A stretch of 64,000 bases of DNA from Patescibacteria group bacterium (GTDB lineage: Bacteria > Patescibacteriota > Microgenomatia > UBA10105 > UBA927): positions 64,596 to 128,595 of the forward strand of contig DATKGN010000013.1 of the NCBI GenBank assembly GCA_035510735.1, in the 5' to 3' direction. The position numbers were made by a program, and so were the translations under genes. The first letter of the stretch is position 1. Each line of letters opens with the position of its first letter. This document shows, in pieces, positions 4,184 to 24,002 of this stretch. A model generated the notes under the pieces. The model was not told the origin of the DNA. It saw only the letters and a program-made list of their open reading frames with translations, and searched no databases.

Positions 4184-4286
4184 AAAATAAATTCAATCAA
4201 TATTGCGTACCGGTATTATAACGACTGTTTACCATTATATCCAACGCTTTCAAATTGGTGTGGTCTGTGAAATAATGCGGTAAAAT

Positions 4287-6695
4287 ATGGATTGTGTCCG
4301 AAAATTTATGAGGTCGTATTGGCCGCTCGTCAGCATTATCATCATCATTCTCCTGTTTTTTTACAAAACTGTTATTTTTGGAAAAATTCCGTTTCCGGGC
4401 GATTTACTTCTCTCTGAATATGCGCCGTGGCGGCATGCGTCATACTTCGGCTACGCGCCGGGCGCAATTCCGAGTAAAGCACAGTACTTTGATGTCGTAC
4501 GGGAACTTTATCCGTGGAAAACCCTGGTCATTGACCAGTTGAAAAAATTTCAAATACCGCTCTGGAATCCGTATAATTTTTCGGGAACCCCGCTTCTTGC
4601 CAACTATCAGTCGCAAGTGTTCTACCCACTTGGGATACTCTATTTTATTCTTCCCCAAAAGACAGCGTGGACCGTGCTTCTTATTCTCCAACCCATTCTC
4701 GGATCGGTATTTCTATACTTATTCGCTACGGAAATCGGTCTTTCCGCCACAGCTGGCTTATTAGCTGCACTCCTTTTTAATTTTTCAAGTTTCGCAAATG
4801 TCTGGATGGAATTTAACACCGTTTGGCATACAATTCTCTGGCTTCCCTTACTTCTGTATCTCCTCGAACGAAGCATCCGTGAGAAAAAAATTCCACTTAG
4901 CCGAAAATTAATTTTTATCTTCGTGCTGTTTTCCTCAATTACAGGAGGCCATCCGCAGGATTTTATCGATACTTTTATTTTCCTTTCCGTTTATGAAATT
5001 ATCCGACTAATATCAATCAAAATTTGGACTCCTCAATTCAAACGGACATTTATAATACAACTGTTTTCCATGACAATAATCCCTTTTTTGCTTGCAGGTC
5101 CGCAACTACTTCCGACTATAGAGCTTTTCCGACTCTCTTCACGTGTACCACATGATTTAGCCTTTATTCTCACGACTATGCTCGTCCAATGGTGGCAACT
5201 TCCCATGCTCATCGTCCAAGACTTTTTTGGCAATCCGGCAACGCATTCATACTTTCTCCTTGATACGTATGTCAATAAATCGCTCTCCATCGGGGTCACT
5301 GGTTTTATTCTCGTTGCGGCCTCGTTATTCCAAAAGAAACGCGGCTGGCACCAGAAATTTTTTATCGGCGTGGTCCTCACCGTACTTCTTCTCACCGTTA
5401 ATACTCCGTTTGCGCTGGTATTTTACCGGTTTCCGATTCCAATACTCTCAACTGGAAGTCCAACACGTATACTTTGGATGCTTGCTTTGGCTTTTTCCAT
5501 ACTCGCCGGTTTCGGGTTTGATCGAATCAAAGAGCTATCGTTTAAACAATTCATTCCTCCTTTAATCGTAAGCTTCATGAGTATAGGAATACTGTGGGTT
5601 ATTACGCTCATTCATCCCTCATTCGGAAACGTGATCATGAATACCACAACAACCAAACATGCGCTTATTATCGCGACAGGTATTATTATTTGTCTTTCAT
5701 TTTTACTTTTTATAAAACACCTTCATAAATTTCTTGTATACGGGATAATCCTAATAACCATATTTGAACTCGCGTATTCGTTTATGAAATTCAACCCCTT
5801 TGTCCCCCAAGAATTCATGTATCCTTCACATGCGGTTTTAACCTACTTACAGACTTATGCAGGTATTAACCGATATTGGGGATACGGGACAACACGGATG
5901 GAATCTAATCTAAACGCGCAGTACCAACTGTATACGACAGACGGCACGGATCCGCTCAATCTCGCCTTATACAACAAACTTATCCAGGCAAGTTCCAATG
6001 GAAAAATCGCTGAAGTTTTTGACCGCACAACCAGATCGGATGTCGCTATCGTGAAAGGATACGGCCCCACCGATTTGCCGGACAATCAGTATCGACTCCG
6101 CCTCATGGATCTGTTGGGAGTAAAATATGTCCTTGACCGTTTTGACAACCCTAAAAATAATACAACGTTTTCCGCTGATCATTTTTCACCTGTCTACTCC
6201 ACCCAGGACGGGTATACGATCTATAGAAATGTTAAGGCATTACCACGAGCATTTCTCGCCGACTCGGTCATTACGTATGCTTCGGACAGCCAGTTTGAAA
6301 AACTATTTTTCGATACAGCATTTAACCCGCAAACTACGGTACTCGTACCAGCAACGTCAACAATTCCTAAAACGGAACAAACAGAAAAGAAAGTCGCAGC
6401 CATCACTTCATACACACCGAATTCAGTTGAAATTAGAGCATCAACGGATAAACCGCAAATTCTGTTTCTTTCAGATACATTCGCGCCGGGCTGGAATGCA
6501 ACGATTGATAATAAGCCAACACCGATATTGTTAGCTGACTATGCGTTTCGTGCCGTCGCGCTGCCTCCAGGAGATCATATCGTACGATTTGTCTACTGGC
6601 CGAGGAGTTTTGAGCTCGGTCTAGTTGCAATGGTTATTGGAATCCTTATGACAATTTCTGTTGTTGTGCTTGATACTCTTAAACGAAACGGCTAA
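4287..6695 (+). CDS. YfhO-family membrane protein (GT-C-type glycosyl transferase for teichoic-acid or protein glycosylation), paralog 1.
   Basis: It carries 'LWNPYNFSGTPLLANYQSQVFYP' and the C-terminal 'FAPGWNATIDNKPTPILLADYAFRAVALPPGDHIVRFVYWP' block, both typical of YfhO (PF09586). It is 802 aa with many TM segments. Confidence 0.7.
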   Translation: MDCVRKFMRSYWPLVSIIIIILLFFYKTVIFGKIPFPGDLLLSEYAPWRHASYFGYAPGAIPSKAQYFDVVRELYPWKTLVIDQLKKFQIPLWNPYNFSGTPLLANYQSQVFYPLGILYFILPQKTAWTVLLILQPILGSVFLYLFATEIGLSATAGLLAALLFNFSSFANVWMEFNTVWHTILWLPLLLYLLERSIREKKIPLSRKLIFIFVLFSSITGGHPQDFIDTFIFLSVYEIIRLISIKIWTPQFKRTFIIQLFSMTIIPFLLAGPQLLPTIELFRLSSRVPHDLAFILTTMLVQWWQLPMLIVQDFFGNPATHSYFLLDTYVNKSLSIGVTGFILVAASLFQKKRGWHQKFFIGVVLTVLLLTVNTPFALVFYRFPIPILSTGSPTRILWMLALAFSILAGFGFDRIKELSFKQFIPPLIVSFMSIGILWVITLIHPSFGNVIMNTTTTKHALIIATGIIICLSFLLFIKHLHKFLVYGIILITIFELAYSFMKFNPFVPQEFMYPSHAVLTYLQTYAGINRYWGYGTTRMESNLNAQYQLYTTDGTDPLNLALYNKLIQASSNGKIAEVFDRTTRSDVAIVKGYGPTDLPDNQYRLRLMDLLGVKYVLDRFDNPKNNTTFSADHFSPVYSTQDGYTIYRNVKALPRAFLADSVITYASDSQFEKLFFDTAFNPQTTVLVPATSTIPKTEQTEKKVAAITSYTPNSVEIRASTDKPQILFLSDTFAPGWNATIDNKPTPILLADYAFRAVALPPGDHIVRFVYWPRSFELGLVAMVIGILMTISVVVLDTLKRNG

Positions 6696-9016
6696 ATCGG
6701 CTTCCGTTTACTCACGTTCACAGAAATTCCCAAGAGCATTACGAAACTTACTATTGAAAGTGCCATAGATTCATTCCAACCCGTAGGGGTATAGCTGAAA
6801 AAAACCGTAGATTTCCCCTGTGGAACGACTACGGCCCTAAAATTATAGTTTGCCCTGTACAACACGGTCCCGCGGCCGTTAACCGTAGCATTCCATCCGG
6901 GGTAGTATGCGTCTGAAACGTAAAATATGGCAGGCACGGTTGTATTCACCGAAAACTCCTGTGAATTAAGCGTCGTACGAATGAGTGACGCCGAACCGGT
7001 TCCCTCGTGAATAACAACTGGTAGTTTCGATTCGAGAAGCACCGTGGAAGTCGTATCGACTGCGTCGGTTCCCAGTATATGAAGAATTGAATTACCGGAC
7101 AAATTGTCTTTTACATTATAAAATAGGCCGAATCGCTGGTGTGACTCTTCATTCCTATATACATCCAACCGGTCATTTGAAAATACGCGCGTCAAATCCG
7201 CCATATATTTCGGGGTTAAAAAATATACAGTAGATGGAAATGTACCAGCTGGCGCAACAATATATTTAACACCCAAAAAGTCAAGAGTCCTTTTGAGATT
7301 AGGTTCATACGATAAATAATATTTATTAACCGGCAAAGATCCTGTAGGGTGACCCATCAGCGTATTGAGTAATACGGCGGTCCTTTCAGGATATAAAGGG
7401 TTATATGTTTCAACACTATAAATTCCGAAATACGTCGGTAATTCAGGCTCAATGAATCCGAAAACCCGATCAAGCGTTTTATCAGTATGAGATTTGATGA
7501 ATGAAGTTACGTCAGAATTCGGGTACAAAAACTTGGTATTGGAAAAAGTGAGAAACCGGTATCCGACACGGAACAAATCAAAATAGGTTAAAAAAACCAC
7601 TGCGATAACAAATACCGTACCTGCTAAATAACTGAATTTCTTTCTTGTGATGAAATATAAAATGGTTATTACCAGAAATAAACAAAGAATAATTATGGGA
7701 AACTTAAGATTTGCTACAACAGGAAACGGTACGTGAAGCAGTTTTGCAAAAATTAAGGATGCCACGAATGTCAAGACGACGAACCCACCATAAATCAAAA
7801 TCGATACAATACTGCGTTTGTCTTTAGACTGGTGTACAAATTCGGATATACCGAACCCGGCAAGCATTGCACCGCATGCTTCCGTTATAAAAAATAACCG
7901 TGCGCCTGACCCGCTTGTGATAACCGGTATTCTTAACCAATAAAGTAATTGGGCCACTCCGTCTAGTGAGAACAATATCCCCAGGCAAAATAAGACAGTA
8001 AACAACCGTACAATTGTATTTTTCCTTTGTACGATCATTGCGTAGATTGCAAAGAATAGCGGGATAATTCCGAAATATCCGCTTTGCTCGATATAGCTTA
8101 TATGCAGATCATGAGTGAGCGGATTTCCGAAAAAATCTGGGGCCAATAACCGAAGAAGCTGATAGGGCTTGAGGAGATCTCCTGAAAATACGGTATATGC
8201 GCTTTCGATGCCCCGATATGAAGAGCGGAACATTTCGAAACTCGGAATAATCTGGACAGCACTTACTCCCAATCCCAAGATCATGGAAATTCCCAAAAAC
8301 ATATATTGCTTTAACGCCGCATGGACAACCTTCCCGTAAATAAACAAAAAGCTAAGCACGATAATCATTTCGTATGCCAAATACTGTAAATGTCCGGCGA
8401 ATACCACGCAGGCGAGACTCAGTCCCAATCCCAATAGCCATGCGCCCCGCGGTATATCAAGATATTTTTTTACGAGAAACAAAAATAGCGGCAGCCATAA
8501 CAATGCATTTCCGTCTGATCCGAATTCCAAGACGCCGACCATGAGCGTGCTGAATGCAAAAGCAATCCCCGACAATAATGATGCGCTTCGGCGAAGTCCG
8601 AGGCTTCGCATGAAGAGATACATAAAAAACATGCTTCCGAATAGTTGAAAAAGAAGTAGTGCATGCCATGAAGCGATCTCTCCTAAAGGGAATAACAGGT
8701 TTATCGGGTACCATACCATCGGCTTCATGCCCGCCATAAACGGCATACCCGTAAATTGATACGGGTTCCAAAACGGAATTTGTCCGTGAGTCAAGGAATT
8801 GAAGGCGAGATGTCGCCACGGAAATAACTGCAAAATACTGTCCTGCATATATGCATTCTTAAGAAGAATGGTGCTCGCGAAGTGCCAGGGAGAATAATTA
8901 CTCACCAGAAGGTCAAGTGGCAACAACACTAACCCCTGGAAAATGGGGTAGACGTAGATAATGGTCAGAATAAATATCAATACAATAAATCCGTATCGCG
9001 CCACTGCTTTACCCAT
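6692..9016 (-). CDS. YfhO-family membrane protein, paralog 2.
   Basis: It carries 'FWNPYQFTGMPFMAGMKPMVWYP' and the C-terminal 'YYPGWNATVNGRGTVLYRANYNFRAVVVPQGKSTVFFSY' block. It is convergent with YfhO-1, and the two stop codons overlap at 6692..6695. Confidence 0.7.
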   Translation of the reverse strand: MGKAVARYGFIVLIFILTIIYVYPIFQGLVLLPLDLLVSNYSPWHFASTILLKNAYMQDSILQLFPWRHLAFNSLTHGQIPFWNPYQFTGMPFMAGMKPMVWYPINLLFPLGEIASWHALLLFQLFGSMFFMYLFMRSLGLRRSASLLSGIAFAFSTLMVGVLEFGSDGNALLWLPLFLFLVKKYLDIPRGAWLLGLGLSLACVVFAGHLQYLAYEMIIVLSFLFIYGKVVHAALKQYMFLGISMILGLGVSAVQIIPSFEMFRSSYRGIESAYTVFSGDLLKPYQLLRLLAPDFFGNPLTHDLHISYIEQSGYFGIIPLFFAIYAMIVQRKNTIVRLFTVLFCLGILFSLDGVAQLLYWLRIPVITSGSGARLFFITEACGAMLAGFGISEFVHQSKDKRSIVSILIYGGFVVLTFVASLIFAKLLHVPFPVVANLKFPIIILCLFLVITILYFITRKKFSYLAGTVFVIAVVFLTYFDLFRVGYRFLTFSNTKFLYPNSDVTSFIKSHTDKTLDRVFGFIEPELPTYFGIYSVETYNPLYPERTAVLLNTLMGHPTGSLPVNKYYLSYEPNLKRTLDFLGVKYIVAPAGTFPSTVYFLTPKYMADLTRVFSNDRLDVYRNEESHQRFGLFYNVKDNLSGNSILHILGTDAVDTTSTVLLESKLPVVIHEGTGSASLIRTTLNSQEFSVNTTVPAIFYVSDAYYPGWNATVNGRGTVLYRANYNFRAVVVPQGKSTVFFSYTPTGWNESMALSIVSFVMLLGISVNVSKRKPI

Positions 9017-9077
9017 ATCTCTAACTTCCTTATCTTCTCTTATGGACTTTACTCAAATCCGTCATATAATCTAACAA
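9017..9077. promoter_or_regulatory. Divergent promoter region between YfhO-2 (minus) and GT39-2 (plus). A TATAAT box lies at 9065..9070, 7 nt upstream of the ATG at 9078, so the transcript is possibly leaderless.
   Basis: This is the only 61-bp non-coding gap between divergent genes here. It contains an exact TATAAT hexamer. No Shine-Dalgarno sequence precedes the ATG. Confidence 0.3.
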
Positions 9078-10724
9078 ATGGTAACATTTTTAAAAAGAAA
9101 TATACAATTAATCATTATATTCCTTATTGCTATTGGCCTACGAACGATTCATCTCGGGACAATTCCAAACGGCTTTCATGTTGATGAACTCGACGCAGGG
9201 TACATAGGGAGATACATCTGGACACATGGCAAAGATATTTTGGGCAACTATTTACCCTTTGTATATAACAAATTCGGTGATTACCGGCCGACAGGAATAT
9301 TTTATCTGTCCGGACTTTCCGCACTTATTTTCGGATCAACCGAATTTGCCGTACGATTTCCTGCAGCTCTCATAGGGGGGATCACAGTGGTTGCGATATA
9401 TTTTTTAGCTTTGGAATTCTTTTCAAATAAGTCGATTGCACTTTTTTCTGCAATTCTCTTGGCTGTAATGCCCTGGCATCTCGTGCTTTCCCGGGCAACC
9501 TCAGAAGGCATCATCGGCTTATTTTTTGTGATTCTCGGACTAGGGTTACTCATGAAAAGCTACAGAACCAATTCCCCCAGAATGATGATAGTTGCGGGAT
9601 TATCCCTTATTGCAAGTTATCTGTTTTATCATCCTTTTCGGATTCTCGTTCCGCTGTGCCTCCTCCCCCTATTATTTACCCCCGGACGGCATAAACATAT
9701 TAAGCTCGCTTCAATAATTCTGTTTTGCCTTGCATCTTTCTTCACCTTACTCACCGTATTTACAGTCGCCGGAAACGGAAGACTCAATCAGGTCGCTTTT
9801 TACCAAAACCCTGATCTGGCGACATTAACACAGGATCTCATCGCCGGAGAAGGCCCGAATAATGTCTTAGAGGCGCGTATTTTCCATAACAAAATCGTCG
9901 CATTTACCCAGGAATTTGTGAAACAATACTCAAGCTATTTTTCTACTGAATTTTTAATACAAACCGGCGGATTACCCAAACGATATGCCGTTCCTCAGGA
10001 GGGACTTATCTACGTTTCATTTTTTGTACTGTTCATCATAGGATTACTCACAATAATCTCGTATAAGGTGAAATGGAAGAGTTTATACATATTATACCTT
10101 CTGGTAATCGCCCCACTGCCCGCTGCCGTCACGTACGAAGATACTCCGAACATTCACCGGGCTGTATTTTTGATACTCCCTATTATTCTTCTCACCGCAT
10201 ATGGGTTGTATAGACTGCTGGATTTAGTAAAATCGAAAACAAAGAATTATATATTTCTTCTCATCATTGTGCTGTGTATTATTTCAGTCGAAACGATCAA
10301 TTTCTGGCACTACTACACGATTTTTGCACCATCGTCTGAAAGTTATTCACGTGATGATGGGTTGGCTCAGCTTGTACAATTAGCATACGCGGAAAAGGGA
10401 AAATACAAATATATTTATCTCCCAGGATATGAAAACCTTCCGCTGTATTATCTATTTTATACATCAGATTATCAAAACATACACTTCCGGAATAACCCAA
10501 ATGATGTTCTTCTTGATAAAATAGACAATGTCATATTCGTACCCGACTGGTGCTCCACGCGTTATCTTAGATGGAAAAATCTTCTTGCCCCGTCAACGCT
10601 TATTATAGACAGAGATGATTGTGAAGGATTTACCGGTATCGGGAAAATTGGTGAAATCGATAGAAAAGATTTAACGAAAGCATTCAAACTTCTCAGATTT
10701 ATCCCTGAAGAATACCATAAATAA
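9078..10724 (+). CDS. GT39 / PMT_2-family glycosyltransferase, paralog 2.
   Basis: The loop 'LRTIHLGTIPNGFHVDELDAGYIGRYIW...FGDYRPTG' is the same DE-motif loop as in 2507..4183. It is 548 aa and polytopic. Confidence 0.7.
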   Translation: MVTFLKRNIQLIIIFLIAIGLRTIHLGTIPNGFHVDELDAGYIGRYIWTHGKDILGNYLPFVYNKFGDYRPTGIFYLSGLSALIFGSTEFAVRFPAALIGGITVVAIYFLALEFFSNKSIALFSAILLAVMPWHLVLSRATSEGIIGLFFVILGLGLLMKSYRTNSPRMMIVAGLSLIASYLFYHPFRILVPLCLLPLLFTPGRHKHIKLASIILFCLASFFTLLTVFTVAGNGRLNQVAFYQNPDLATLTQDLIAGEGPNNVLEARIFHNKIVAFTQEFVKQYSSYFSTEFLIQTGGLPKRYAVPQEGLIYVSFFVLFIIGLLTIISYKVKWKSLYILYLLVIAPLPAAVTYEDTPNIHRAVFLILPIILLTAYGLYRLLDLVKSKTKNYIFLLIIVLCIISVETINFWHYYTIFAPSSESYSRDDGLAQLVQLAYAEKGKYKYIYLPGYENLPLYYLFYTSDYQNIHFRNNPNDVLLDKIDNVIFVPDWCSTRYLRWKNLLAPSTLIIDRDDCEGFTGIGKIGEIDRKDLTKAFKLLRFIPEEYHK

Positions 10725-12686
10725 CTAATACATAATCTGATAAATTGCACCGCCAGACGTGGTAACTATCTTACGGAAATGATTATCACCGTCAAACCAC
10801 ACGGGTTGATTTTCCGTCAATATATACCGGACATGATACGTACGATACAACATATCTAATGCCGCGAGTGATCTGGTCCGTGCCAAAGATGCTACAGAAA
10901 ATTGAGCTGACATGAATGACTCGGCTATAGGTAAACGATTCTTCCACAACTCATCATAGCGAAACTGAACGACTTCACCGCCAAGAAATATCCGTTTACC
11001 TGCAAAAGCCGGAACATACGGCAGGGAAATGTACTTCGCCCATGACGTAAACTCTGCTGCCGAGTATTTCTGCATTTTCGGTAATTCCAATACCACATCT
11101 GAATATGATCCGATTGATGCTAACTCTGTATAGAATACCAAGTGAGCTTTCGAAACGGGTATACGGTCGTCATTCATAATGAAATTTAATTTCCAAATTG
11201 CAGAGGGAAGTGTTCCTAAAATAATAATCACGGCAGCTATCACGGCGACAGTTTTGGAGAGTTTTTCTACGATTCTTCCGATGCCAATACCGCACAAAAT
11301 ACCGATAAATACCATAAAATACCAAAAAAACTGAATCATGTTATACGCCCCAATGGGTTGAATAAACAACATGGGCATAATAAAGGATATGCATAATGTG
11401 AGTAGTATTGCCCATGTAAGCGTATTAAACTTTTTCGGAAACGGAATAAATCCAAAAAAACCGATAATCCGTGTTCCGATATTTCCCAATAGAAAAAAAA
11501 CAACTGCTTCGAATTCTAATTTTAGGACGCCTTTCACACTGCCTATAGCAAGAAGCGTCTGTCTTTTAAGCTCCCAATTCGTAAAATTCAATGTTCCCTG
11601 CATAACTCTGTTAGGCGGCCAGAGAAACTCGAATATGAGAAAACCGTATGACGCATTAAGGGGAAAGAAAACTAAGGCGCTAACAATCCCGCTTAGAATA
11701 AGAATGAGAAGCATCACCCATTGCTTTTTAAATACACCGTCGTAAAGGCAAATAAAACTTAATGTCCCCATAACGATGACACCTGCGTACACTTTAATTC
11801 CAACACTCACACCGGAAAGCAGTACAATCAACAACCCGATTAACCAACTTTTCCTGTGAATAAATTCACAAAGAAGTAAATACGTCCAAATAAGAACAAC
11901 GATAGATAACGTTACTGAGGGGCTAAGTAATAACGAAATTGGCTGTGTAATTCCGAAGCTGTCATCGAAACTTAAGGGTCTGTGATATATGTATGGCAGG
12001 ATAAATGAAAAACTACCGCCGAAAATAGCGAAAAAAGTTCCCCATAACGCCAGACTCTTCTTACGACACAATGCCTCGGCAAGTGCGTAAATTCCATAAA
12101 CAAATAAAAGGGACATCAGGATTGCTGCGAAGTGATAATGAAGATTGAGGATTGATATGGGAACAATTCGCGCTATCTCTCCAATCCAAAGATTATAAAA
12201 AATGTGATAACCCTTGAGAGGTGCTCCTGCTATGGACGGGTGCTGCGGCGGAAAATTTTCTTTCAACTCCCTCGCAAGGGCTATGTTCCATATCCCATCC
12301 TGACCGTTAACCGAGCGCAGTAATAAACCATTTGGCACAATCCAACCGCTCGTTACAACGGACAATGAAAAAACAAAGGCGAATATCAACAGAAGTACAT
12401 GGGGAGCTTCCCAACCAGTTTGTATTTTCTTCCACCATCTTTTCCATCGGAGAAATGCGATAACGTCAAAAACTGCTAACGTAATTGGCCCGCCTATCCG
12501 GAAACCAGCCATCCCAAAGCCGTAGGCCAGACCGATCATTAAGACTATTCCAACTGTTAAACCAAGCGTTACACGACGCCAGCCGGAATACGGAATCGAT
12601 CCGAAAGAAAATATTCCCTCCGCAGGCATTAACATCAGAAATATGACCGCGAAGGAAAAAAGAAGAAAATCGATAATAAAATTCAT
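10725..12686 (-). CDS. Large polytopic membrane protein (653 aa) with a C-terminal extracytoplasmic domain. Family unknown. It is a candidate GT-C or Wzy-like polymerase/ligase partner of the flippase.
   Basis: The ORF is uninterrupted with about 14 hydrophobic segments. It sits inside the glycosylation island directly upstream of a GT2 and is convergent with GT39-2, with zero gap. Confidence 0.5.
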   Translation of the reverse strand: MNFIIDFLLFSFAVIFLMLMPAEGIFSFGSIPYSGWRRVTLGLTVGIVLMIGLAYGFGMAGFRIGGPITLAVFDVIAFLRWKRWWKKIQTGWEAPHVLLLIFAFVFSLSVVTSGWIVPNGLLLRSVNGQDGIWNIALARELKENFPPQHPSIAGAPLKGYHIFYNLWIGEIARIVPISILNLHYHFAAILMSLLFVYGIYALAEALCRKKSLALWGTFFAIFGGSFSFILPYIYHRPLSFDDSFGITQPISLLLSPSVTLSIVVLIWTYLLLCEFIHRKSWLIGLLIVLLSGVSVGIKVYAGVIVMGTLSFICLYDGVFKKQWVMLLILILSGIVSALVFFPLNASYGFLIFEFLWPPNRVMQGTLNFTNWELKRQTLLAIGSVKGVLKLEFEAVVFFLLGNIGTRIIGFFGFIPFPKKFNTLTWAILLTLCISFIMPMLFIQPIGAYNMIQFFWYFMVFIGILCGIGIGRIVEKLSKTVAVIAAVIIILGTLPSAIWKLNFIMNDDRIPVSKAHLVFYTELASIGSYSDVVLELPKMQKYSAAEFTSWAKYISLPYVPAFAGKRIFLGGEVVQFRYDELWKNRLPIAESFMSAQFSVASLARTRSLAALDMLYRTYHVRYILTENQPVWFDGDNHFRKIVTTSGGAIYQIMY

Positions 12687-12698
12687 GTGTGCGATTAA

Positions 12699-13619
12699 CT
12701 AGAGAGCTAAATCCTTATCAGAACGCTTCCATTTTGCTTTTAGCGCTTGCCGCTTTTTGAGAGCGGAAGGAAGCATGCCCAGTGCAAGAAAAAATCCCTG
12801 AATATGTATGAAATCGCCACGAAATAACGACTGACACAGTCGAACCGGTGTCCAAAAAACATGATCTATCATTATTGACAGATCGGTCAGATTTTTCCAA
12901 ATAAAAATAAATTGGTTACGGTATGCTATTCGTTTTACATCATCGGGAGTAAATTCACTCTTAATTTTTCCCTCTTCATGATAGTGATTCACAATGCTCT
13001 TCGGTTCAAAGATTATATCCCAACCCATCTTCCGGGCGCGATATGACAAATCAATATCTTCCCAGTAAAAGGGATTAAACAACTTATCCATGCTGTCCAG
13101 CTCACTCCATATGGATCTCCGGAAAGCTGCGCTTCCGCCAGAGGCCCACGCCGTATCACTTCCACCCACATCACCCCGCGAATGAATATAATATCCCTTT
13201 TCCCAATGGGCTAATCCACGACCACGCAGAATAACGCCGCCATTCTCAAAACTCCGTTCCAGACAACCTACGGCAAATACCCTGGAATCAGAAAAATGCT
13301 GAAGAAGCGGCGGCAAAAAATCTTTATCCGGCTCAACATCAGTGTTAAGAAGAATAACGATATCACCTGTTGCTTTTAAAACGCCGGAATTAACGTTCCC
13401 GGCAAAACCTTCGCGTTTTGTATTAGCGACAACGACGACATTCGGGAAACTGTTACGTAAATATTCTACTGACCCATCAGAAGACATATCGTCAGCAACG
13501 ACGATTTCCGCTTTTGGGGCCGCCAAAATAACATTCTTCAGATGCTTTTTCATTAGATAAACACCGTTCCAGTTCGGGATGACGATTGAAACGCTCAGGG
13601 GATGATTATTATTTTTCAT
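12699..13619 (-). CDS. GT2 glycosyltransferase, rhamnosyltransferase (WbbL)-like.
   Basis: 'VSIVIPNWNG...VVADDMSSDGS...LLNTDVEPDKDFL' carries the GT2 DXD and N-terminal signatures. It is a paralog of 19983..20915. Confidence 0.75.
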   Translation of the reverse strand: MKNNNHPLSVSIVIPNWNGVYLMKKHLKNVILAAPKAEIVVADDMSSDGSVEYLRNSFPNVVVVANTKREGFAGNVNSGVLKATGDIVILLNTDVEPDKDFLPPLLQHFSDSRVFAVGCLERSFENGGVILRGRGLAHWEKGYYIHSRGDVGGSDTAWASGGSAAFRRSIWSELDSMDKLFNPFYWEDIDLSYRARKMGWDIIFEPKSIVNHYHEEGKIKSEFTPDDVKRIAYRNQFIFIWKNLTDLSIMIDHVFWTPVRLCQSLFRGDFIHIQGFFLALGMLPSALKKRQALKAKWKRSDKDLAL

Positions 13620-13630
13620 AAACTTTGAAA

Positions 13631-15889
13631 TTAACGGTATATTAGATCAACTGAATGAGACCCTGTTGGCACGAGAACACCCATGAAAACATAATTCGTA
13701 CGGTATATCGCTGTAGCTTTCTTGTCAATGTATGCATGCCAGCCGGAAATATAGGAATTACTCACAACGAGTAACCTCGGTACCATCGTACTCACCTTAA
13801 AAGAAATCTGATCATCAGCATACCGTTTTATCTCAACTGTTTCCGAGGTTGTAAGCGGAACATTGATAGTTTGTACGGGATATTCTACAACTGCGGATAT
13901 ACCTGGTTTGAACGCCGGATTGTAAAGTTTATTCATGATGGCTTGTTTATTTATCAAAAATATCGGCTGCTCTACTAGATACGCCCGCGGGAGGAAATTT
14001 GGGGCCACAAACAACATTGTTTTTCCTTCAGTCAGTACTTTTTGAAATCCCATTCGACTTAAATCATCAAACGAAAGAACATATTGAACGTTGAATAATG
14101 GAAGAAGCGGCGATTGCACATTTTTCGGCACGAGGATGCGGTTAAAACCGAATGGTGGAGAAATATTCGGTGACCCCCGCCCCATAGCGGCAGCAAATTC
14201 CTCATACCGTGATGAATAAAGGGGATCGTATCCGTTAATCGATTCAATTCCGTAAAATTCATTAACGTTCGGCGGTAATATTCTGTCATCCGTCGTCATA
14301 ATACGAAATGGCTTCGGTTGCTTCTGCAGGTATGAAATAATTTTTGTCGTCGGGAAAAAATAGGAAGTGTCTGTAAAGGGCGTAAATTTCCATCCGAATC
14401 TGAATAGGTCGACAACAGTGAACAATATAATACATGAAGTTAACAACGGCAAAAATTTATTATGACGCTTTAACGTAATCAGTAACATAAGGAGCAGGCC
14501 TGATCCGATAAATATAACGGTGGGCACTACGAGGTTACGTTTTATTAAAATAACCTTATCGAGTGGAATACCGAATAATTTCGGGGCAAACGCGCCAAAC
14601 CACAAAACAACCAACAGAAGGAATAGAACCGAAACCCATTGAAATGCTTTTTTATGTTTTATAGTATCCGTTATCGCAGATAATCCGTATGCGGCAAGCA
14701 CCGAGAGACTAAAATCAATGATGACCAATAGTCTTGTCGGCTGTAAAGATGAAATGAGCGGGAGATGAAGCTGAAATGGCAAATAGGCAACCGGTGATGC
14801 TACAGCAAAAAGCAAGCTGATGATGACCATGAATAGCCAAAACATGGTTTGTGACCCTATCCCGATGAGCGCCAATAGTAGCCCCCCAACTCCGACATAT
14901 CCAACCATTTCACCATAATTCCACATTCCCCAATAATTGAGTGTTGCTGGATTTCCAAAATAATCGGGAGCAATAAATTGAACGAGATGCCGGAAGGGAA
15001 TAAAAAATCCTTCGGATTGCCATGCAGAACTTGTGAGTAGTCGACTTGTCTGAGGAAACCATTCAATAATTCTGAACATCTGCGGAGCTATCAGAATGTA
15101 TACGACGCACAAGCCAGTGAGATACATATAGGAATTCCGTAATAGAAATGCGCGTCTGTGGAACCATAAGGTGTATAAAACAATGAAAAGGGTGCTATAG
15201 AGAAAAATCTGACTGTGACCTGCGAAAAACGAGCATGCGATCGATAATCCCGCAATAAAAGCCCAAACCATTCGATTCCTGTTCTTCTCGTCAAAAATGT
15301 TATCGACCGCAAGTAGAGTCAACGGAGTCCACAACCATGAGGAAATCATTGTCCCCCATGTTAACCATGCAATAGAAAATCCGGAAAACGAAAAACAAAT
15401 TGCACCGAACAATGAGGGCAAGTTGCCTAATTTCTTATGACGCAGATATATATACAAAAATATTCCTGACAACAACGGCTGACTTATGATAAGCATCGTC
15501 CAGGCAGCCGCAAACGGAAATAATAAAAATAATATATTTAACGGATAAAGTGCACCGCTTTGTATGTTTGCTAAAAGCGGAGCTCCTGAGAAAGAATACG
15601 GGTCCCACAAGGATATCTTTCCCTGCCGCAGAGAATCGGTGAATGATTTGCGCCAGGGAATTTGCTGGCGGATGGGATCAGTGATAAGAAAATTTTTGAA
15701 GGGTATACCATTTGGATATTGAACCGCATAGGCATCTCTATAGGGTGAATAGAGTCCGACAAGAGCATCGGAAGGAACGGGCAACTTACCAAATACAATC
15801 GTCCGGTAAAAAAATACGCCCACGATAACCGTAAAAAGTAATACAAAAATCCAGTCGCTAAAACGTTTCAAACGTAATAATGATTTCAT
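13631..15889 (-). CDS. YfhO-family membrane protein, paralog 3.
   Basis: It carries 'LWDPYSFSGAPLLANIQSGALYP' and the C-terminal 'YISGWHAYIDKKATAIYRTNYVFMGVLVPTGSHSVDLIY' block. Its start overlaps the stop of the upstream GT4 by 4 nt. Confidence 0.7.
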   Translation of the reverse strand: MKSLLRLKRFSDWIFVLLFTVIVGVFFYRTIVFGKLPVPSDALVGLYSPYRDAYAVQYPNGIPFKNFLITDPIRQQIPWRKSFTDSLRQGKISLWDPYSFSGAPLLANIQSGALYPLNILFLLFPFAAAWTMLIISQPLLSGIFLYIYLRHKKLGNLPSLFGAICFSFSGFSIAWLTWGTMISSWLWTPLTLLAVDNIFDEKNRNRMVWAFIAGLSIACSFFAGHSQIFLYSTLFIVLYTLWFHRRAFLLRNSYMYLTGLCVVYILIAPQMFRIIEWFPQTSRLLTSSAWQSEGFFIPFRHLVQFIAPDYFGNPATLNYWGMWNYGEMVGYVGVGGLLLALIGIGSQTMFWLFMVIISLLFAVASPVAYLPFQLHLPLISSLQPTRLLVIIDFSLSVLAAYGLSAITDTIKHKKAFQWVSVLFLLLVVLWFGAFAPKLFGIPLDKVILIKRNLVVPTVIFIGSGLLLMLLITLKRHNKFLPLLTSCIILFTVVDLFRFGWKFTPFTDTSYFFPTTKIISYLQKQPKPFRIMTTDDRILPPNVNEFYGIESINGYDPLYSSRYEEFAAAMGRGSPNISPPFGFNRILVPKNVQSPLLPLFNVQYVLSFDDLSRMGFQKVLTEGKTMLFVAPNFLPRAYLVEQPIFLINKQAIMNKLYNPAFKPGISAVVEYPVQTINVPLTTSETVEIKRYADDQISFKVSTMVPRLLVVSNSYISGWHAYIDKKATAIYRTNYVFMGVLVPTGSHSVDLIYR

Positions 15890-16950
15890 ATTATTTTATT
15901 TGTACCCGTTATATCTAATAATAATGCATCAAATGACCGGCAAAATCGGTCCTTCGTGAATGCGGTTGAACTTTTGAGAGCAGCCGCTGCCATGGCGCTT
16001 CGTAGCTCCGTATTTTTAATGAGTGTCGTGGTTTCCTGGATCAGCTCCTCCGTTGTATTCCAGAGGAATCCGCTTTTCCGATTCGCAATTATTTCCGGTT
16101 GCCCCCCTCCGTCAAAAACGACCGGTACGGCTCCTGCTGCCATGGCCTCAACTGTCGTTATTCCGAAATGCTCCATATGTTCCGGTTTTGTTTCCCCGTA
16201 GCCTGCTGCATGCCAATAGATAGAAGCGGCGGAATAGTGAGTATTAAGCGTTTCGTACGAACAATTAGGGTAAAATTCGACGGGCAAGCCTTTTGCTTTC
16301 AGTTTCAGGGAATTGAAATAGTCGGTATCACTTGATAATAATCCACCCGCAATGACAAGCTTCCACCCCTTTAAGAGCGGGCTCTTATATAGTTTACGGA
16401 ATGTCTCGATGAGCACATTCTGTTTCTTTGCTCCATAATGCCCGTTAAATCTGCCGACTGACAAAAGTATCTTCGATTTTCTGCCGGGCTTTAGTGCGCT
16501 CACATCAACAGGCGGGTAAATAACCGTTCTGGGGATGACAAGGTGAGGATCAAGGTGCTTTTTCGTAAATTCCGAATTGCATACAATCCGCTGATAACGG
16601 AATGCTTTCCAAAAAGGCATCGAAATATGAGAAAACGGCACCTGAAAATGAAGTATATTGTATTTTGCAGCAGATAATGGAATACTTCCGTCACTCAGGA
16701 AAAAAATAAGATCGTATGAGCTCGTGGTCATTAACTTCCCAATACTATTTCCCAACTGGAACACATTTGCGACAATACTCACTTTTGCTAGGTCAATACT
16801 AAATCTCTTTTGAACCTCAGCTTTCACTTTATTATCATCCCAGAACACGCTAACATTGTGTATTTGGGACCAATGTTCAGCCAGGCTAAACACATAACGC
16901 TCCCCTCCTCCAAGAGAATCTAAATATGGACTATATATACCGATTTTCAT
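15886..16950 (-). CDS. GT4 (GT-B fold) glycosyltransferase.
   Basis: The C-terminal block 'GITTVEAMAAGAVPVVFDGGGQPEII' matches the EX7E-type GT4 motif. The protein is 354 aa. Confidence 0.75.
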   Translation of the reverse strand: MKIGIYSPYLDSLGGGERYVFSLAEHWSQIHNVSVFWDDNKVKAEVQKRFSIDLAKVSIVANVFQLGNSIGKLMTTSSYDLIFFLSDGSIPLSAAKYNILHFQVPFSHISMPFWKAFRYQRIVCNSEFTKKHLDPHLVIPRTVIYPPVDVSALKPGRKSKILLSVGRFNGHYGAKKQNVLIETFRKLYKSPLLKGWKLVIAGGLLSSDTDYFNSLKLKAKGLPVEFYPNCSYETLNTHYSAASIYWHAAGYGETKPEHMEHFGITTVEAMAAGAVPVVFDGGGQPEIIANRKSGFLWNTTEELIQETTTLIKNTELRSAMAAAALKSSTAFTKDRFCRSFDALLLDITGTNKII

Positions 16951-19256
16951 ATTACGGAAGCTAAAAACACTCCAGAAAATATTATTACAAAACCCATTAC
17001 GGCAAACATAAATCCGACACGCAGGCTATCCGGAAAATAAACAAATTGAACGATATGACCACCGGCCGGGATGGCCACCGCACGAAAATCATAGTCTGCG
17101 CGATAGATCTCCGATGGCTTACCATCAACAGTCGCGTGCCATCCCGGATCAAATACATCCGACAAAAAAAGCAATTTTGGAACTACTGAAGAAGTTTTTA
17201 CGGTCACGTTGTTTGGTTTGTAGGACACAATATCCGCTGACCCTGAACCGATTCTCGGCTTAATCGCAGGCTCCTTCTCAAGTATCAATGATTCTCTCCG
17301 ATCAAAAGTGCTATCGAAAAGCGTTTGAATAATTGCGGTGTCACTTTGAATGGTCGTAAAGGACGAAGCAAGAAAGGCCCGTGGGTAAGCCTTTACATAT
17401 TCAAATATCTCATAGCTGTTATCAGAGTAAATTTGTTTCATAGATGAATCAGGTAAATATTCCCAAAATGGAAATGCCCAAATATTTCTCCCGTCGCTAA
17501 TCCTGTGGTAAATATAACGGACGCCTAACAGTTGAAGTATATCTGTTTTATATATTCCCTCTTTATCAAATAACACGACGGAACGGCCTCCGGGGGAAAT
17601 ATACCCGTTTGACGATGCATTAATGAACTGTGCGTAGCGGCCCTGATAGAGAGCGTCATATCCTTCGATAAGCGGCAAATGGAACGTTCCTCCTACTTCA
17701 TTCCCGATGTTACCGAACACCCGGTCATTCCCGATTTTCGATTGAAGAACCATCAATGATTTTTCTTCGGGATAAATATACTGCCTGGGGTCAAACGGCA
17801 TCCACTTCGTTACGAACCGGTACGAATCAAAAAGGATCAATCCCAAAATAAGACCTGTTACGACGACACGCATATATTTTTGCTTTAAAGATCCCGCAAA
17901 CATTAACACAAAAGTTACGATTGCAAACAGCGTTGGCAATACGAAGTTTCTCTTCGCGATTGTTAATTTATCTATGGGTAATGGTTTTCCTAATAACAGA
18001 AATACCCAGAGAAAAATAACAACGAACAGAGCAATAACTATAAATCGAATCGGAGATTTTTTTCCGAACCGCCAATAGTCTACAAGTTCATCAAATCCAT
18101 AAGACGCAAGCACGGTAAGAGAAAAACTAAACAGTACGATAATTCTTGAAGCCGCGCTCGTTGATAGTGCCGGTATTTTCAGCCGGAATAGAAGGTCATT
18201 AACCGGCGTCGGATACGCAAGAAGTAATGCCAAAGCGGCGAGAGTAATAAAAAATTTCTTGTCCGATTTAAAATTCCTCACACTCCCGAAAACCGCTAAA
18301 AGAAAAGGCACAACTCCTATATAGGAAGACCATTCCGCATAATGTCCGAACCAGTCGTTCCGTGTCACCGGATTGCCGAAGAAATCCGGTGCGAATGTGG
18401 TCACGATATATTGCCAGGGAATTACCTCTAATTTTGCATAACTCGCCCCCCGTGTTGACGCCCTATACGCATCAAGTGTTAGCAATAATTGCGGTGCAGC
18501 AATAAATAATCCGCCGATACTATAAAGAAGCAATGCGGCCCCCTGCAACCACTTGCGGGAATCTGCAGCTTTAAAAATGATATATAACACCACCGTCGCC
18601 ATCACATACAGGCTGATCTGAAAATGCCCCGAAACGAACGATAATGCAACGCTTGCTGCGAGAATTAAGCGGGCTATTGATGATTTCCTAATAAAGTCAG
18701 TTGTGACTGCCCATAAAGACCATGGGAGAAATGCTATAGCGTAACCAAGCGTGCCGTATGCCATCCAGGTTGTCATAAAGCCGCAAAACATAAATCCTAT
18801 GGCTCCGATAAGTGCCCCTGTTTTTGACCGGGAGAGTCTTCTTACAAACAAATAGGTTCCAATACCTGCTATGAGAGGTTGCAGAAGAATGAGAACGCTC
18901 CATGCATCAATAAACGGAAGAATCATAAATAGCAGGTTCATCGGGGAAAATACAGCCGATTGATAGTTAGCTGCAAGCGGAGTACCGGAGAAACTATAAG
19001 GATTCCAAAGCGGTATTGCCCCGTTCTTCCAGATATCGATAGTAAGTTTTCTCCAGGGATACATCTGAGATATCACATCCGGCATCGCATTATTTTTGAC
19101 AGGCATACCGTTCATGGCATTCCAAGGAGGAAAAAATGTAACTAAATATTTCGACGGAAACGGGATAAGTCCGCGGACAAAATACGGTGAGGAAAAAACA
19201 AACCAAAGAATGATAATCACGATAATCGGCCAAAATCTCGTAAGGAATTGTCTCAT
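16947..19256 (-). CDS. YfhO-family membrane protein, paralog 4.
   Basis: It carries 'LWNPYSFSGTPLAANYQSAVFSP' and the C-terminal 'FDPGWHATVDGKPSEIYRADYDFRAVAIPAGGHIVQFVYFP' block. The start was moved to the internal ATG (MRQFL...) at 19254-19256, which forms an ATGA overlap with the upstream GT2 stop. The track ORF extends to 19280. Confidence 0.7.
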   Translation of the reverse strand: MRQFLTRFWPIIVIIILWFVFSSPYFVRGLIPFPSKYLVTFFPPWNAMNGMPVKNNAMPDVISQMYPWRKLTIDIWKNGAIPLWNPYSFSGTPLAANYQSAVFSPMNLLFMILPFIDAWSVLILLQPLIAGIGTYLFVRRLSRSKTGALIGAIGFMFCGFMTTWMAYGTLGYAIAFLPWSLWAVTTDFIRKSSIARLILAASVALSFVSGHFQISLYVMATVVLYIIFKAADSRKWLQGAALLLYSIGGLFIAAPQLLLTLDAYRASTRGASYAKLEVIPWQYIVTTFAPDFFGNPVTRNDWFGHYAEWSSYIGVVPFLLAVFGSVRNFKSDKKFFITLAALALLLAYPTPVNDLLFRLKIPALSTSAASRIIVLFSFSLTVLASYGFDELVDYWRFGKKSPIRFIVIALFVVIFLWVFLLLGKPLPIDKLTIAKRNFVLPTLFAIVTFVLMFAGSLKQKYMRVVVTGLILGLILFDSYRFVTKWMPFDPRQYIYPEEKSLMVLQSKIGNDRVFGNIGNEVGGTFHLPLIEGYDALYQGRYAQFINASSNGYISPGGRSVVLFDKEGIYKTDILQLLGVRYIYHRISDGRNIWAFPFWEYLPDSSMKQIYSDNSYEIFEYVKAYPRAFLASSFTTIQSDTAIIQTLFDSTFDRRESLILEKEPAIKPRIGSGSADIVSYKPNNVTVKTSSVVPKLLFLSDVFDPGWHATVDGKPSEIYRADYDFRAVAIPAGGHIVQFVYFPDSLRVGFMFAVMGFVIIFSGVFLASVI

Positions 19257-20017
19257 GATGTCCTTTTCTGCAGTTCCCAAAGCTTCGCGTACGTAATAAA
19301 CATGCTGAATGCCTGATAAATGCTTTCAATTAACCCGACCGTACCCGCTTTCCAGCCCCCCTGGCGGATAAACGAATCAAAAAAAGCGGTCATCATGACG
19401 CGAAGAAGTCTCCACCAGGAAATGAGTGGATGATGACTTTTAAACCGTAACTCTGCTTCTAAAGCAGACCATTTATTAGTTTTATCGACCATTTCCTCAA
19501 GCGTTCGGTGCGTTTTGTGAATAAAGCAATTGCGAAGCGTTGAAATTGGCCCATGAACGACCGCATGCTCATGCAGAACTCCGTCCCACTGCGAGAGGGC
19601 ATCGTTTCGGATCAAGCGAACCATACCATCCCTACTGGGCCACAACAAGCCGAGGTAATAATTCTGTCGGGGAATAAAATAAGCGCGTGAAGCATGCTCA
19701 CCAGTTATTTCGCTCATAATTTCTTCGCGAAGCGGCGGCGGGACCAATTCATCGGCGTCCACGTAAAGAAGCCATATACCATGCGCTGCTTTAGCACCGT
19801 TATTCCGAAGCAGCGAAAAGTTATTACTCCGTACATTTACAACTATAGCGCCGCATTTTTTTGCGATAAGCGCTGTTTCATCCGTTGAAGCGTTATCAAT
19901 AACAATGCACTCATCTGCCCATGAAAGGCTCTGTAAACACCCCTCCAAGCGTTTTGCTTCATTTCTGGCAATAACAATCGCACTAAGAAGTATTCTTCTT
20001 TTCATACTGTTTTCCAA
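19253..20017 (-). CDS. GT2 glycosyltransferase (WaaE/KdtX-like clade).
   Basis: 'LSAIVIARNEAKRLEGCLQSLSWADECIVIDNASTDET' is the signature. It is a paralog of 20912..21823. Confidence 0.7.
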   Translation of the reverse strand: MENSMKRRILLSAIVIARNEAKRLEGCLQSLSWADECIVIDNASTDETALIAKKCGAIVVNVRSNNFSLLRNNGAKAAHGIWLLYVDADELVPPPLREEIMSEITGEHASRAYFIPRQNYYLGLLWPSRDGMVRLIRNDALSQWDGVLHEHAVVHGPISTLRNCFIHKTHRTLEEMVDKTNKWSALEAELRFKSHHPLISWWRLLRVMMTAFFDSFIRQGGWKAGTVGLIESIYQAFSMFITYAKLWELQKRTS

Positions 20018-23272: not shown

Positions 23273-24002
23273 ATATCATTCTCTTCCATGGTCTGATAAC
23301 CAATAATCGCCATAAACCCTCCAAATCCCCCTGAGCCGTTTTTACAACCCGCACGGTTGAACCCGGGTTGTCGATCCACGTCACTCCCTCTTCATAAATG
23401 CGAAATCCCAGCTTTTCAGAAAGAATCAATAATTCAGTATCAAAAAACCATGCATTATCCTCGGTATACGGTAAAATCTTTTTTGCACAACGGTCAGTAA
23501 TCGCCTTAAAACCGCACTGGGCATCGCTAAATTTGACCCAAAAAAACAGTTTAATAAGAGAAATATACACTTTTGAGGTCAGTGTCCGTAGCCAATTTCT
23601 ACCGTACACGCGGGAGGCTCTCGCGTTCCTTGTCCCGATAGCAAGATCATATCCACGAAGCAGTGAACGAACAAGAGGCGGAAAGTGCTTGAGATCTGTT
23701 GAGAGATCAACATCCATATAACAATGGATATCGGCATCGGTGTGAAGCCAGGCGTATTTTACTGCACGTCCCCTGCCTTTTTGTTTCAGATGGACTGCGT
23801 GCACTTGCCGGAATCGTTTTGATAGTATTTTAGCAATAGCAAGCGTTTGATCCGTCGACGCGTTATCTGCGATGGTAATACTCCATTCAAAATCCATTAA
23901 ATATGATTGCAGATAGCGGATAAGCGTCTCCACGTGATCCGCTAATTCAACTTCTTCATTAAAAACAGGTATGACGATATCAAGTTTTGGTTTTTTTCCC
24001 AT
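23253..24002 (-). CDS. GT2 polyprenol-phosphate sugar synthase-like (Dpm1/GtrB-like), short form.
   Basis: 'LDIVIPVFNEEVEL...ITIADNASTDQTLAIAK...QKGRGRAVKYAW' is the signature. It is 249 aa with no C-terminal TM. Confidence 0.6.
   Translation of the reverse strand: MGKKPKLDIVIPVFNEEVELADHVETLIRYLQSYLMDFEWSITIADNASTDQTLAIAKILSKRFRQVHAVHLKQKGRGRAVKYAWLHTDADIHCYMDVDLSTDLKHFPPLVRSLLRGYDLAIGTRNARASRVYGRNWLRTLTSKVYISLIKLFFWVKFSDAQCGFKAITDRCAKKILPYTEDNAWFFDTELLILSEKLGFRIYEEGVTWIDNPGSTVRVVKTAQGDLEGLWRLLVIRPWKRMIYDYGRN

Follow-up and report, generated by a model that had tools for sequence, protein, structure and literature searches.

To our knowledge, every polyprenyl-phosphate-sugar (polyprenyl-P-sugar) synthase characterized so far that feeds a GT-C glycosyltransferase belongs to glycosyltransferase family 2 (GT2). 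The synthases GtrB, ArnC, DPMS, CsbB, and GtlA are GT2 enzymes (PMC5836110, PMC8035078). CsbB and GtlA are GtrB-like, are held in the membrane by a pair of C-terminal transmembrane (TM) helices (PMC5836110), and make the C55-P-sugar for a GT-C partner (PMC5836110, PMC8035078). YfhO of Bacillus subtilis contains 13 TM helices with a loop of 389 amino acids between the last two (PMC5836110). Here, we analyzed four proteins of the YfhO family, YfhO1 to YfhO4, which are encoded in a stretch of 64,000 nucleotides from a Patescibacteria group bacterium (GenBank assembly GCA_035510735.1, contig DATKGN010000013.1, positions 64,596 to 128,595; referred to as the window). In our reading, to which we assign a probability of roughly 0.6, they are four functionally distinct GT-C enzymes of one envelope-glycan locus that would draw on a common set of lipid-linked donors and attach the sugars on the outer side of the membrane. 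An earlier note on the sequence of the window had instead proposed dedicated pairs resembling CsbB-YfhO, in which a GT2 (19253-20017) feeds YfhO4 and a glycosyltransferase of family 4 (GT4; 15886-16950) feeds YfhO3. Sequence comparisons now largely refute this pairing.

Family membership and fold of the four YfhO proteins

The four YfhO open reading frames (ORFs, Table 1) were found where the earlier note had placed them, and in a Pfam scan all passed the PF09586 gathering score of 28.5 bits, with E values between 3e-29 and 2e-15. The alignment to the model was restricted to the central TM block and the C-terminal ~70 residues; for YfhO3 and YfhO4, the best single stretch comprised the C-terminal ~70 residues only. 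YfhO1 and YfhO4 additionally gave weak NCBIfam matches to PgfM2 and PgfM1. The YfhO scores of 18-21 bits, again confined to the C-terminal ~70 residues, did not reach the equivalog cut-off of these models (1400-1500 bits). Pairwise BLASTP aligned the four proteins over nearly their full length at 27-33% identity (E values 5e-61 to 2e-121). YfhO1 and YfhO4 were 33% identical, and YfhO2 shared 27-28% with the other three. Because identity is so low, the four are old paralogs, diverged as the note had described them, and a duplication introduced by assembly was ruled out. The public gene call sets the start of YfhO1 7 codons downstream, resulting in 795 instead of 802 amino acids. YfhO4 most likely starts with the ATG at 19256 (769 amino acids) and not with the TTG at 19280 given in the ORF list.

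The WNPY block and the C-terminal block ending in DYxFRA, which were thought to be retained in all copies, are exact in YfhO1 and YfhO4 but altered in the other two. YfhO2 carries WNPY..AG and NYNFRA, whereas WDPY, SGWHA, and NYVFMG are found in YfhO3. The latter protein also ends directly after the conserved beta-strands ('...VDLIYR') and is devoid of the terminal TM helix of YfhO1, YfhO2, and YfhO4. A hydropathy scan, made by the simple Kyte-Doolittle method and not with a dedicated topology predictor, placed 10-12 TM helices in the first ~500 residues, followed by the extra terminal helix in those three proteins. YfhO4, the sole copy modelled, yielded an AlphaFold2 (AF2) model of high confidence from an alignment of 66 sequences (predicted local distance difference test (pLDDT), 91; predicted TM-score (pTM), 0.91). 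It consists of a helical membrane block reaching to residue 485 (~11-12 TM helices), an alpha/beta domain (residues 486-742), and a last helix (residues 743-768). By this model, the architecture of YfhO4 matches the published topology of B. subtilis YfhO (PMC5836110) with a shorter loop, the extracytoplasmic loop of the proteins studied here comprising ~255 amino acids compared with 389.

When the model was submitted to Foldseek, 18 of 18 matches with E values of 1e-3 or lower were GT-C enzymes, all of a kind supplied by polyprenyl-linked donors. These included AftD, ArnT, STT3, PglB, DPY19, and Emb proteins (E values 1e-8 to 8e-4; TM-scores 0.3-0.45), with AftD as the best neighbor (E = 1e-8). 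On the strength of the model, we are confident that YfhO4 adopts a GT-C fold. A search of PDB sequences with YfhO4 returned nothing at E values up to 1, and there is thus no solved YfhO structure to which catalytic residues could be anchored.

The earlier note had asked whether the periplasmic loop regions are the most divergent parts of the proteins. The first extracytoplasmic loop (residues 26-106) is instead among the best conserved regions, with a mean identity of 44% and 17 residues invariant in the four paralogs; the last strands (699-738) share 48% identity. Parts of the C-terminal extracytoplasmic domain are strongly diverged: the most diverged stretches are residues 226-253 and 554-620 (9-15% identity), the second of which lies in that domain (12-15%). 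Such a pattern would fit a common donor and lipid site combined with different acceptors or linkages. The different specificities suggested in the earlier note are therefore plausible from the divergence in parts of this domain; the dedicated donor/acceptor pairing attached to them is not supported.

Two acidic positions deserve attention. Asp60 (D60, YfhO4 numbering) in the first extracytoplasmic loop is invariant among the four paralogs, across alignment A1 (62 homologs), and in every ortholog that was aligned. It fits the conserved acidic loop residue that is a hallmark of GT-C enzymes and is a candidate for a catalytic role. The second Asp directly follows TM1 (P-x-D). It is present in 61 of 61 YfhO3 orthologs and also in YfhO1 and YfhO2. 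At the equivalent codon 36 of YfhO4 (window position 19151), 79 orthologs encode Thr (39), Lys (16), Asp (9), Ser (6), Arg (6), or Asn (3). The orthogroups of YfhO3 and YfhO4 differ at this one candidate acidic residue and thereby offer a natural comparison for catalysis in the YfhO family.

The conserved core and the candidate donor synthases

Homologs with 52-72% identity to YfhO4 were found in Candidatus Gottesmanbacteria, Levybacteria, Woesebacteria, and metagenome-assembled genomes of the 'Microgenomates group'. Synteny was analyzed by tblastn of the window proteins against 80 loci, one genome per species, from Gottesmanbacteria, Levybacteria, Woesebacteria, and unclassified Patescibacteria; many of these loci are truncated. 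The conserved order reads PMT_2, PTPS-related paralog, PTPS_related, ArnC-like GT2, Wzx, GT2, GT2, GmaR-like GT2, YfhO4, GT4, YfhO3, GT2. Of the 77 loci that could be evaluated, 72 have the GmaR-like GT2 (19253-20017 in the window) as the immediate upstream neighbor of YfhO4; GT4-YfhO3-GT2 follows downstream of YfhO4 in 53 of 62 evaluable loci. An identical order of all 10 genes including the Wzx flippase was seen in 41 of the 80 loci. In four others (L052, L055, L061, and L071) the GmaR-like GT2 lies on the opposite side of YfhO4, and the four genes are still together. Orthologs of YfhO3, 36-65% identical, are located downstream of the GT4 in nearly all related loci. As orthologs share 36-72% identity and the paralogs only 27-33%, YfhO3 and YfhO4 constitute distinct ancient orthogroups. 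Clear orthologs of YfhO1 and YfhO2 were confined to L004 and L041 (2 of 80 loci; 52-55% identity for YfhO1), and the convergent YfhO1/YfhO2 pair recurs in L041. The extra YfhO paralogs of the flank differ among relatives, and in 22 of the 80 loci the YfhO genes number three or four in a span of 22 kb.

The maintenance of the core order across Gottesmanbacteria, Levybacteria, and Woesebacteria argues that the surface glycan is central to the biology of these organisms. NCBI already labels the relatives as 'YfhO family protein', so the family assignment as such is not new. A literature search revealed no published work on YfhO or GT-C enzymes in Patescibacteria, and the conserved operon therefore appears to be undescribed.

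Inspection of the sequence confirmed the ATGA overlaps that had led to the idea of pairs, one between the stop codon of the GT2 and the start of YfhO4 (19253-19256) and one between the stop codon of the GT4 and the start of YfhO3 (15886-15889). A third ATGA, absent from the earlier note, joins the stop codon of YfhO4 to the start of the GT4 (16947-16950), and GT2-YfhO4-GT4-YfhO3 thus form one coupled string. Among 22 same-strand junctions in the window, 7 overlap by 4 bases and 5 by more, and the remainder are gaps of up to 60 bases. Across the 80 loci of relatives, neighboring genes of the block typically overlap or are separated by a short gap, and -4 is the commonest spacing at every junction. 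Because overlaps are common throughout the operon and in the block of the relatives, they are not a mark of GT/YfhO pairs.

The CsbB-like role of the two adjacent glycosyltransferases was rejected on the basis of the TM scan, the solved relatives, a profile search, and NCBIfam. The Kyte-Doolittle scan detected no TM segment in the GT2 (254 amino acids) or in the GT4 (354 amino acids), and the latter belongs to the GT-B family (Glycos_transf_1). In a single-sequence search of the PDB, the best solved relatives of the GT2 were GmaR (E = 4e-14) and SunS. A profile built from 37 orthologs recovered GmaR (6e-29), SunS (9e-19), and a ThuS-like enzyme (2e-14), while DPMS (3e-5) and GtrB (6e-3) were matched in the N-terminal nucleotide-binding half only. 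The NCBIfam models for ArnC, PgfS, AglJ, Dol-P-hexose transferase, and PpgS did not match this GT2, and the only other GT2 of the locus that it recognized was the one at 20912-21823 (phmmer, E = 2e-39). GmaR is a flagellin O-GlcNAc transferase, and SunS and ThuS-like enzymes are peptide S-glycosyltransferases. The two GmaR-like GT2s of the locus could act as protein or peptide glycosyltransferases. Both contain a conserved His/Glu/Trp-rich C-terminal region with invariant H149, E150, H167, H170, W183, and E187, which is outside the coverage of known structures. Teichoic acid as an acceptor is unsupported, since no gene for its synthesis (TagF, Tar, or LtaS) was seen among the scanned ORFs of the 64-kb window.

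Candidates for polyprenyl-P-sugar synthases were found elsewhere in the locus. The GT2 at 32331-33476, which is fused to a GtrA/DPMS TM domain, matched the Pyrococcus furiosus Dol-P-Man synthase (PDB 5mlz) over residues 9-379 (E = 8e-39), followed by ArnC and GtrB. Judged from these matches, it is the best candidate for the CsbB equivalent of the locus. For the short GT2 at 23253-24002, PDB matches were limited to DPMS, ArnC, and GtrB, and its NCBIfam matches (PgfS, ArnC, AglJ, Dol-P-hexose transferase, and PpgS) all stayed under the cut-offs. DPMS, ArnC, and GtrB were also the top solved relatives of the short GT2 at 29952-30695. All three match the ArnC, PgfS, and Dol-P-hexose models and recognize one another in phmmer searches. 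The lipid-phosphate acceptor of both short enzymes is putative. The candidate synthases and a Wzx/GtrA-type flippase are encoded together with GT-C genes. Judged by homology, all three components known from multi-component transmembrane glycosylation systems of Gram-positive bacteria are thus present in the locus, but the locus is not organized as CsbB-YfhO pairs. Assigning donor synthesis to the DPMS/ArnC-like GT2s and not to the neighbors of YfhO matters for any reconstitution of the pathway.

Proposed pathway, alternatives, and organization of the locus

We infer donors, acceptors, and the order of steps as follows. Going by their gene families, RmlABCD, UDP-glucose 6-dehydrogenase (Ugd), and the short-chain dehydrogenase/reductase (SDR) enzyme would make nucleotide sugars. 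The soluble GT2s and the GT4, the neighbors of YfhO included, would work in the cytoplasm with these donors and would probably build a rhamnose-containing lipid-linked glycan, which Wzx would flip. The three GT2s at 32331-33476, 29952-30695, and 23253-24002 would make polyprenyl-P-monosaccharides, as suggested by their homology to DPMS, ArnC, and GtrB. Outside the membrane, GT-C enzymes including YfhO1-4 would move those sugars onto the glycan or onto surface proteins, a role consistent with their fold and family. YfhO1-4 and the other GT-C enzymes would draw on a common donor pool and have no dedicated partners.

Several observations weigh against this scheme. The adjacency of the GmaR-like GT2 and YfhO4 in 72 of 77 loci, and the fact that the GT2 moves with YfhO4 in the four reordered ones, may point to a tie closer than a common pathway. 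Both short ArnC-like GT2s are devoid of TM helices, and their NCBIfam scores are far under the cut-offs. Finally, no initiating phosphoglycosyltransferase, Wzy, WaaL/PglL-type ligase, or LCP protein was recognized in the ORF scans of the window, which leaves the part of the scheme that involves Wzx incomplete.

This last observation also bears on another reading, in which YfhO3, YfhO4, or other GT-C enzymes act on a Wzx-flipped undecaprenyl-diphosphate (Und-PP)-oligosaccharide as polymerase, ligase, or oligosaccharyltransferase and so take the role of Wzy, WaaL, or LCP proteins. We regard it as unlikely. In its favor, those proteins are missing from the window despite the presence of Wzx and five soluble glycosyltransferases, STT3 and PglB are among the structural neighbors of YfhO4 and are the top neighbors of an orphan GT-C protein (10725-12686), and the YfhO-related PgfM1 and PgfM2 of Streptococcus mutans take part in the glycosylation of proteins (10.1101/2022.10.10.511621), although matches to them are weak here. 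The structural matches, however, are at the level of the fold only (TM-scores 0.3-0.45), and for YfhO4 the monosaccharide transferases AftD and ArnT outscored STT3 and PglB. Furthermore, the orphan protein has no WWD motif, three candidate polyprenyl-P-sugar synthases imply a need for GT-C enzymes that transfer monosaccharides, and genes for Wzy, a ligase, or LCP proteins could be situated outside the window.

It is very improbable that at least one copy, with YfhO4 as the candidate, is not a conventional catalyst but a scaffold, a specificity subunit, or a partner handling the lipid-linked sugar. The lack of constraint on the TM1-proximal Asp in the YfhO4 orthogroup, in the face of 61 of 61 YfhO3 orthologs retaining it, speaks for such a role. 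Yet conservation is strongest in YfhO4 (52-72% identity across classes), which has kept D60 and the WNPY block along with many invariant residues of the loops, and the catalytic acidic residue of YfhO proteins has not been defined (PMC5836110). Dedicated CsbB-YfhO-like pairs have least to recommend them: the ATGA overlaps at both GT/YfhO junctions and the adjacency kept even after reordering, with the GT4 nearly always upstream of YfhO3, would fit. On the other side, no TM helix was predicted for the GT2, which falls with GmaR, SunS, and a ThuS-like enzyme instead of with GtrB, ArnC, and DPMS and misses the ArnC, PgfS, and Dol-P-hexose models matched by three other GT2s of the locus. The GT4 is a GT-B enzyme whereas the characterized polyprenyl-P-sugar synthases are GT2 enzymes, and overlapping genes are found at all junctions of the block.

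The reading of four YfhO enzymes served by shared donors can be extended to the lineage as a whole. By analogy with the assembly of arabinogalactan and lipoarabinomannan in mycobacteria, Microgenomates might assemble, for the most part outside the membrane, a major glycopolymer of the envelope or glycan of surface proteins that is conserved in the lineage, using a dozen or more GT-C enzymes (YfhO, PMT_2, PTPS-related, GT87/MptA-like, and Pfam-orphan) and a few shared polyprenyl-P-sugar synthases. GmaR-like GT2, YfhO4, GT4, and YfhO3 would be the core, and the active site of YfhO4 would be altered by loss of the TM1-proximal Asp. We put this extension forward as a tentative proposal that is rather doubtful in its full form.

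Table 1. Features of the glycan locus, with positions in the window
Feature	Positions	Strand	Remarks
GT-C-like gene	1028-2506	-	paralog of the 30704-32449 gene; left flank
PMT/PMT_2 protein	2507-4183	-	GT-C-like; left flank
YfhO1	4287-6695	+	802 amino acids; PF09586, 102.6 bits; GT-C glycosyltransferase of the YfhO family; variable flank
YfhO2	6692-9016	-	774 amino acids; PF09586, 77.2 bits; most diverged of the four paralogs
PMT_2-type GT-C	9078-10724	+	548 amino acids; PF13231, 53.8 bits; paralog of the 2507-4183 gene (E = 1e-54)
Orphan membrane protein, GT-C fold (predicted)	10725-12686	-	653 amino acids; ~12 TM helices
Soluble GT2	12699-13619	-	306 amino acids; PF00535, 83.3 bits; no TM helix predicted; last gene of the conserved core block
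YfhO3	13631-15889	-	752 amino acids; PF09586, 56.8 bits; conserved core orthogroup
Soluble GT4 (GT-B family)	15886-16950	-	354 amino acids; PF00534, 88.5 bits, and PF13439; between YfhO4 and YfhO3, ATGA on both sides
YfhO4	16947-19256	-	769 amino acids; PF09586, 62.9 bits; conserved core orthogroup
GmaR/SunS-like soluble GT2	19253-20017	-	~254 amino acids; directly upstream of YfhO4
Soluble GT2, rhamnosyltransferase-like	19983-20915	-	order conserved in relatives
Soluble GT2	20912-21823	-	paralog of the 19253-20017 GT2; order conserved in relatives
Wzx/MOP-family flippase	21827-23272	-	481 amino acids; PF13440, 178 bits
Short GT2, DPMS/ArnC/GtrB type	23253-24002	-	no TM helix predicted; in the conserved core; position kept in relatives
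PTPS_related	23980-25656	-	GT-C-like; conserved block
PTPS_related paralog	25653-27224	-	phmmer E = 4e-31 to the 23980-25656 gene; conserved block
PMT_2 protein	27234-28751	-	GT-C-like; conserved block
GT87/MptA-like protein	28791-29948	-	
Second short GT2, ArnC/DPMS-like	29952-30695	-	PDB and NCBIfam matches
PMT_2 GT-C	30704-32449	-	start uncertain
GT2 fused to GtrA/DPMS TM domain	32331-33476	-	381 amino acids; PF00535 and PF04138
RmlA, RmlC, RmlB, RmlD, UDP-glucose 6-dehydrogenase, SDR dehydratase/epimerase (transcription order)	33458-39089	-	Rml/Ugd supply of nucleotide sugars

The glycan locus occupies at least 38 kb of the window (~1028-39089), mostly on the minus strand, and continues for at least 10 kb past the left edge, giving a total of at least 48 kb. 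The window contains no fewer than 13 genes of the GT-C type, and others were found beyond its left edge. The locus holds seven GT2 genes, the GT2-GtrA fusion included, and one GT4. The flippase gene product matched the NCBIfam models for O-glycosylation and MOP flippases below their cut-offs (E = 1e-29). A membrane ORF of 425 amino acids is cut by the start of the window (1-1027, minus strand). Further to the left (L081, 11519-21479), two PMT_2 genes, PTPS_related, a GT2, a gene of the MptA_B family, and a gene for 542 amino acids were observed together with proteins of 379 and 166 amino acids without a family. For the minus-strand ORFs 38223-39089 and 30704-32449, the true start is probably downstream of the listed TTG: in the former, residue 45 is the first of the RmlA domain, and the latter would share 119 bases with the GT2-GtrA gene that precedes it.

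Housekeeping genes (FtsEX, RF2, RuvABC, SecA, and SerRS) fill the window from 40 to 64 kb. One protein encoded near the YfhO genes is 100% identical to an NCBI entry from a metagenome-assembled genome of a 'Patescibacteria group bacterium'. Given these findings and the homologs in Microgenomates, the window represents chromosomal DNA of a Microgenomates bacterium of the Candidate Phyla Radiation (CPR). No tRNA genes were found in the window. The minus-strand ORF 62309-63925 (538 amino acids, GTG start) joins a B3/4 domain to a class I lysyl-tRNA synthetase domain of which only the C-terminal portion is present (profile positions 224-357 of 360); the N-terminal catalytic part may be located in a separate or frameshifted upstream ORF.

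In the flank that contains YfhO1 and YfhO2, single genes alternate in orientation. The stop codons of YfhO1 and YfhO2 overlap at 6692-6695 (TAA on the plus strand and TAG on the minus strand), in agreement with the earlier observation that the two genes are convergent. The second convergent junction has a gap of zero bases (10724/10725), so neither has a spacer, and a terminator-like hairpin was not seen at these junctions. The divergent gaps at 4184-4286 (103 bases) and 9017-9077 (61 bases) contain promoter-like hexamers at a frequency not above chance. The scan of positions 4000-20200 for promoters and terminators did not exceed shuffled sequences (45 compared with 40.3 +/- 6.1 and 15 compared with 15.9 +/- 4.2, respectively).

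The orphan protein encoded in this flank matched no Pfam or NCBIfam family. Only 35 homologs were found in the database, and their sources are Patescibacteria and, for the remainder, metagenomes without a name. Its AF2 model (pLDDT, 91.9) retrieved STT3, PglB, DPY19, and AftA as top Foldseek matches (E values 6e-7 to 5e-4), and residues D130, P146, P147, H149, and P150 are invariant. Assignment as an oligosaccharyltransferase of the STT3/PglB type was rejected on account of the absent WWD motif. From its model, the protein looks like a member of an undescribed GT-C family.

Comparison with described glycosylation systems

Patescibacteria of the CPR have genomes of ~1 Mb, live attached to host cells, and possess an envelope whose chemistry is essentially unexplored. 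By our own estimate, which was not measured for this organism, a glycan locus of ~50 kb would amount to ~5% of a ~1-Mb genome.

The CsbB-GtcA-YfhO systems, which modify lipoteichoic and wall teichoic acids with N-acetylglucosamine in B. subtilis, Staphylococcus aureus, and Listeria monocytogenes (Lmo2550/Lmo1079), have the same PF09586 GT-C component as the locus described here. They also share its architecture, a multi-TM block and a last TM helix that is preceded by a large extracytoplasmic domain, and a GT2 candidate for polyprenyl-P-sugar synthesis and a GtrA-type TM domain are present here as well. In contrast to these systems, no CsbB-like GT2 stands beside any of the YfhO genes, and the GtrA module is fused to a DPMS-like GT2 ~13 kb away. 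Moreover, four YfhO proteins and many other GT-C enzymes would share donors, and the host is a CPR bacterium in whose window no teichoic acid genes were seen.

The Pgf machinery for protein O-glycosylation in S. mutans (PgfS, PgfM1, PgfE, and PgfM2) combines two YfhO-like GT-C proteins, a single GT2 (PgfS), and an epimerase for sugars. In the present locus, the ArnC-like GT2s match the PgfS model, and YfhO1 and YfhO4 match PgfM2 and PgfM1. All these matches, however, are far under the equivalog cut-offs (~18-73 compared with 500-1500 bits), and the YfhO part is confined to the last ~70 residues.

The systems for side chains of streptococcal and lactococcal rhamnose polysaccharides (GacI/J/K/L, CsdAB/CD, and SccN/M) resemble the locus in being supplied by rmlABCD and in combining GT2 and GT4 enzymes of the cytoplasm with a flippase of the Wzx type, a GT2 resembling GtrB, and extracytoplasmic GT-C enzymes (PMC8035078). 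They differ in their export module, an ABC transporter, and in an LCP ligase, neither of which was seen here. Whereas those loci carry one to three GT-C genes, the window holds at least 13. In mycobacteria, the GT-C arabinosyl- and mannosyltransferases AftD, AftA, EmbA/B/C, and MptA/B follow the same logic, in which many GT-C enzymes act one after another outside the membrane and use polyprenyl-P-sugars to assemble a polymer, and GT87/MptA-like genes are present in our locus. The likeness to these proteins is at the level of the fold only (~10% identity), and genes of the decaprenyl-P-arabinose pathway were not seen here. With its many GT-C enzymes, this locus is closer in logic to the rhamnose-polysaccharide side-chain systems or the mycobacterial GT-C assembly lines than to CsbB-YfhO pairs.

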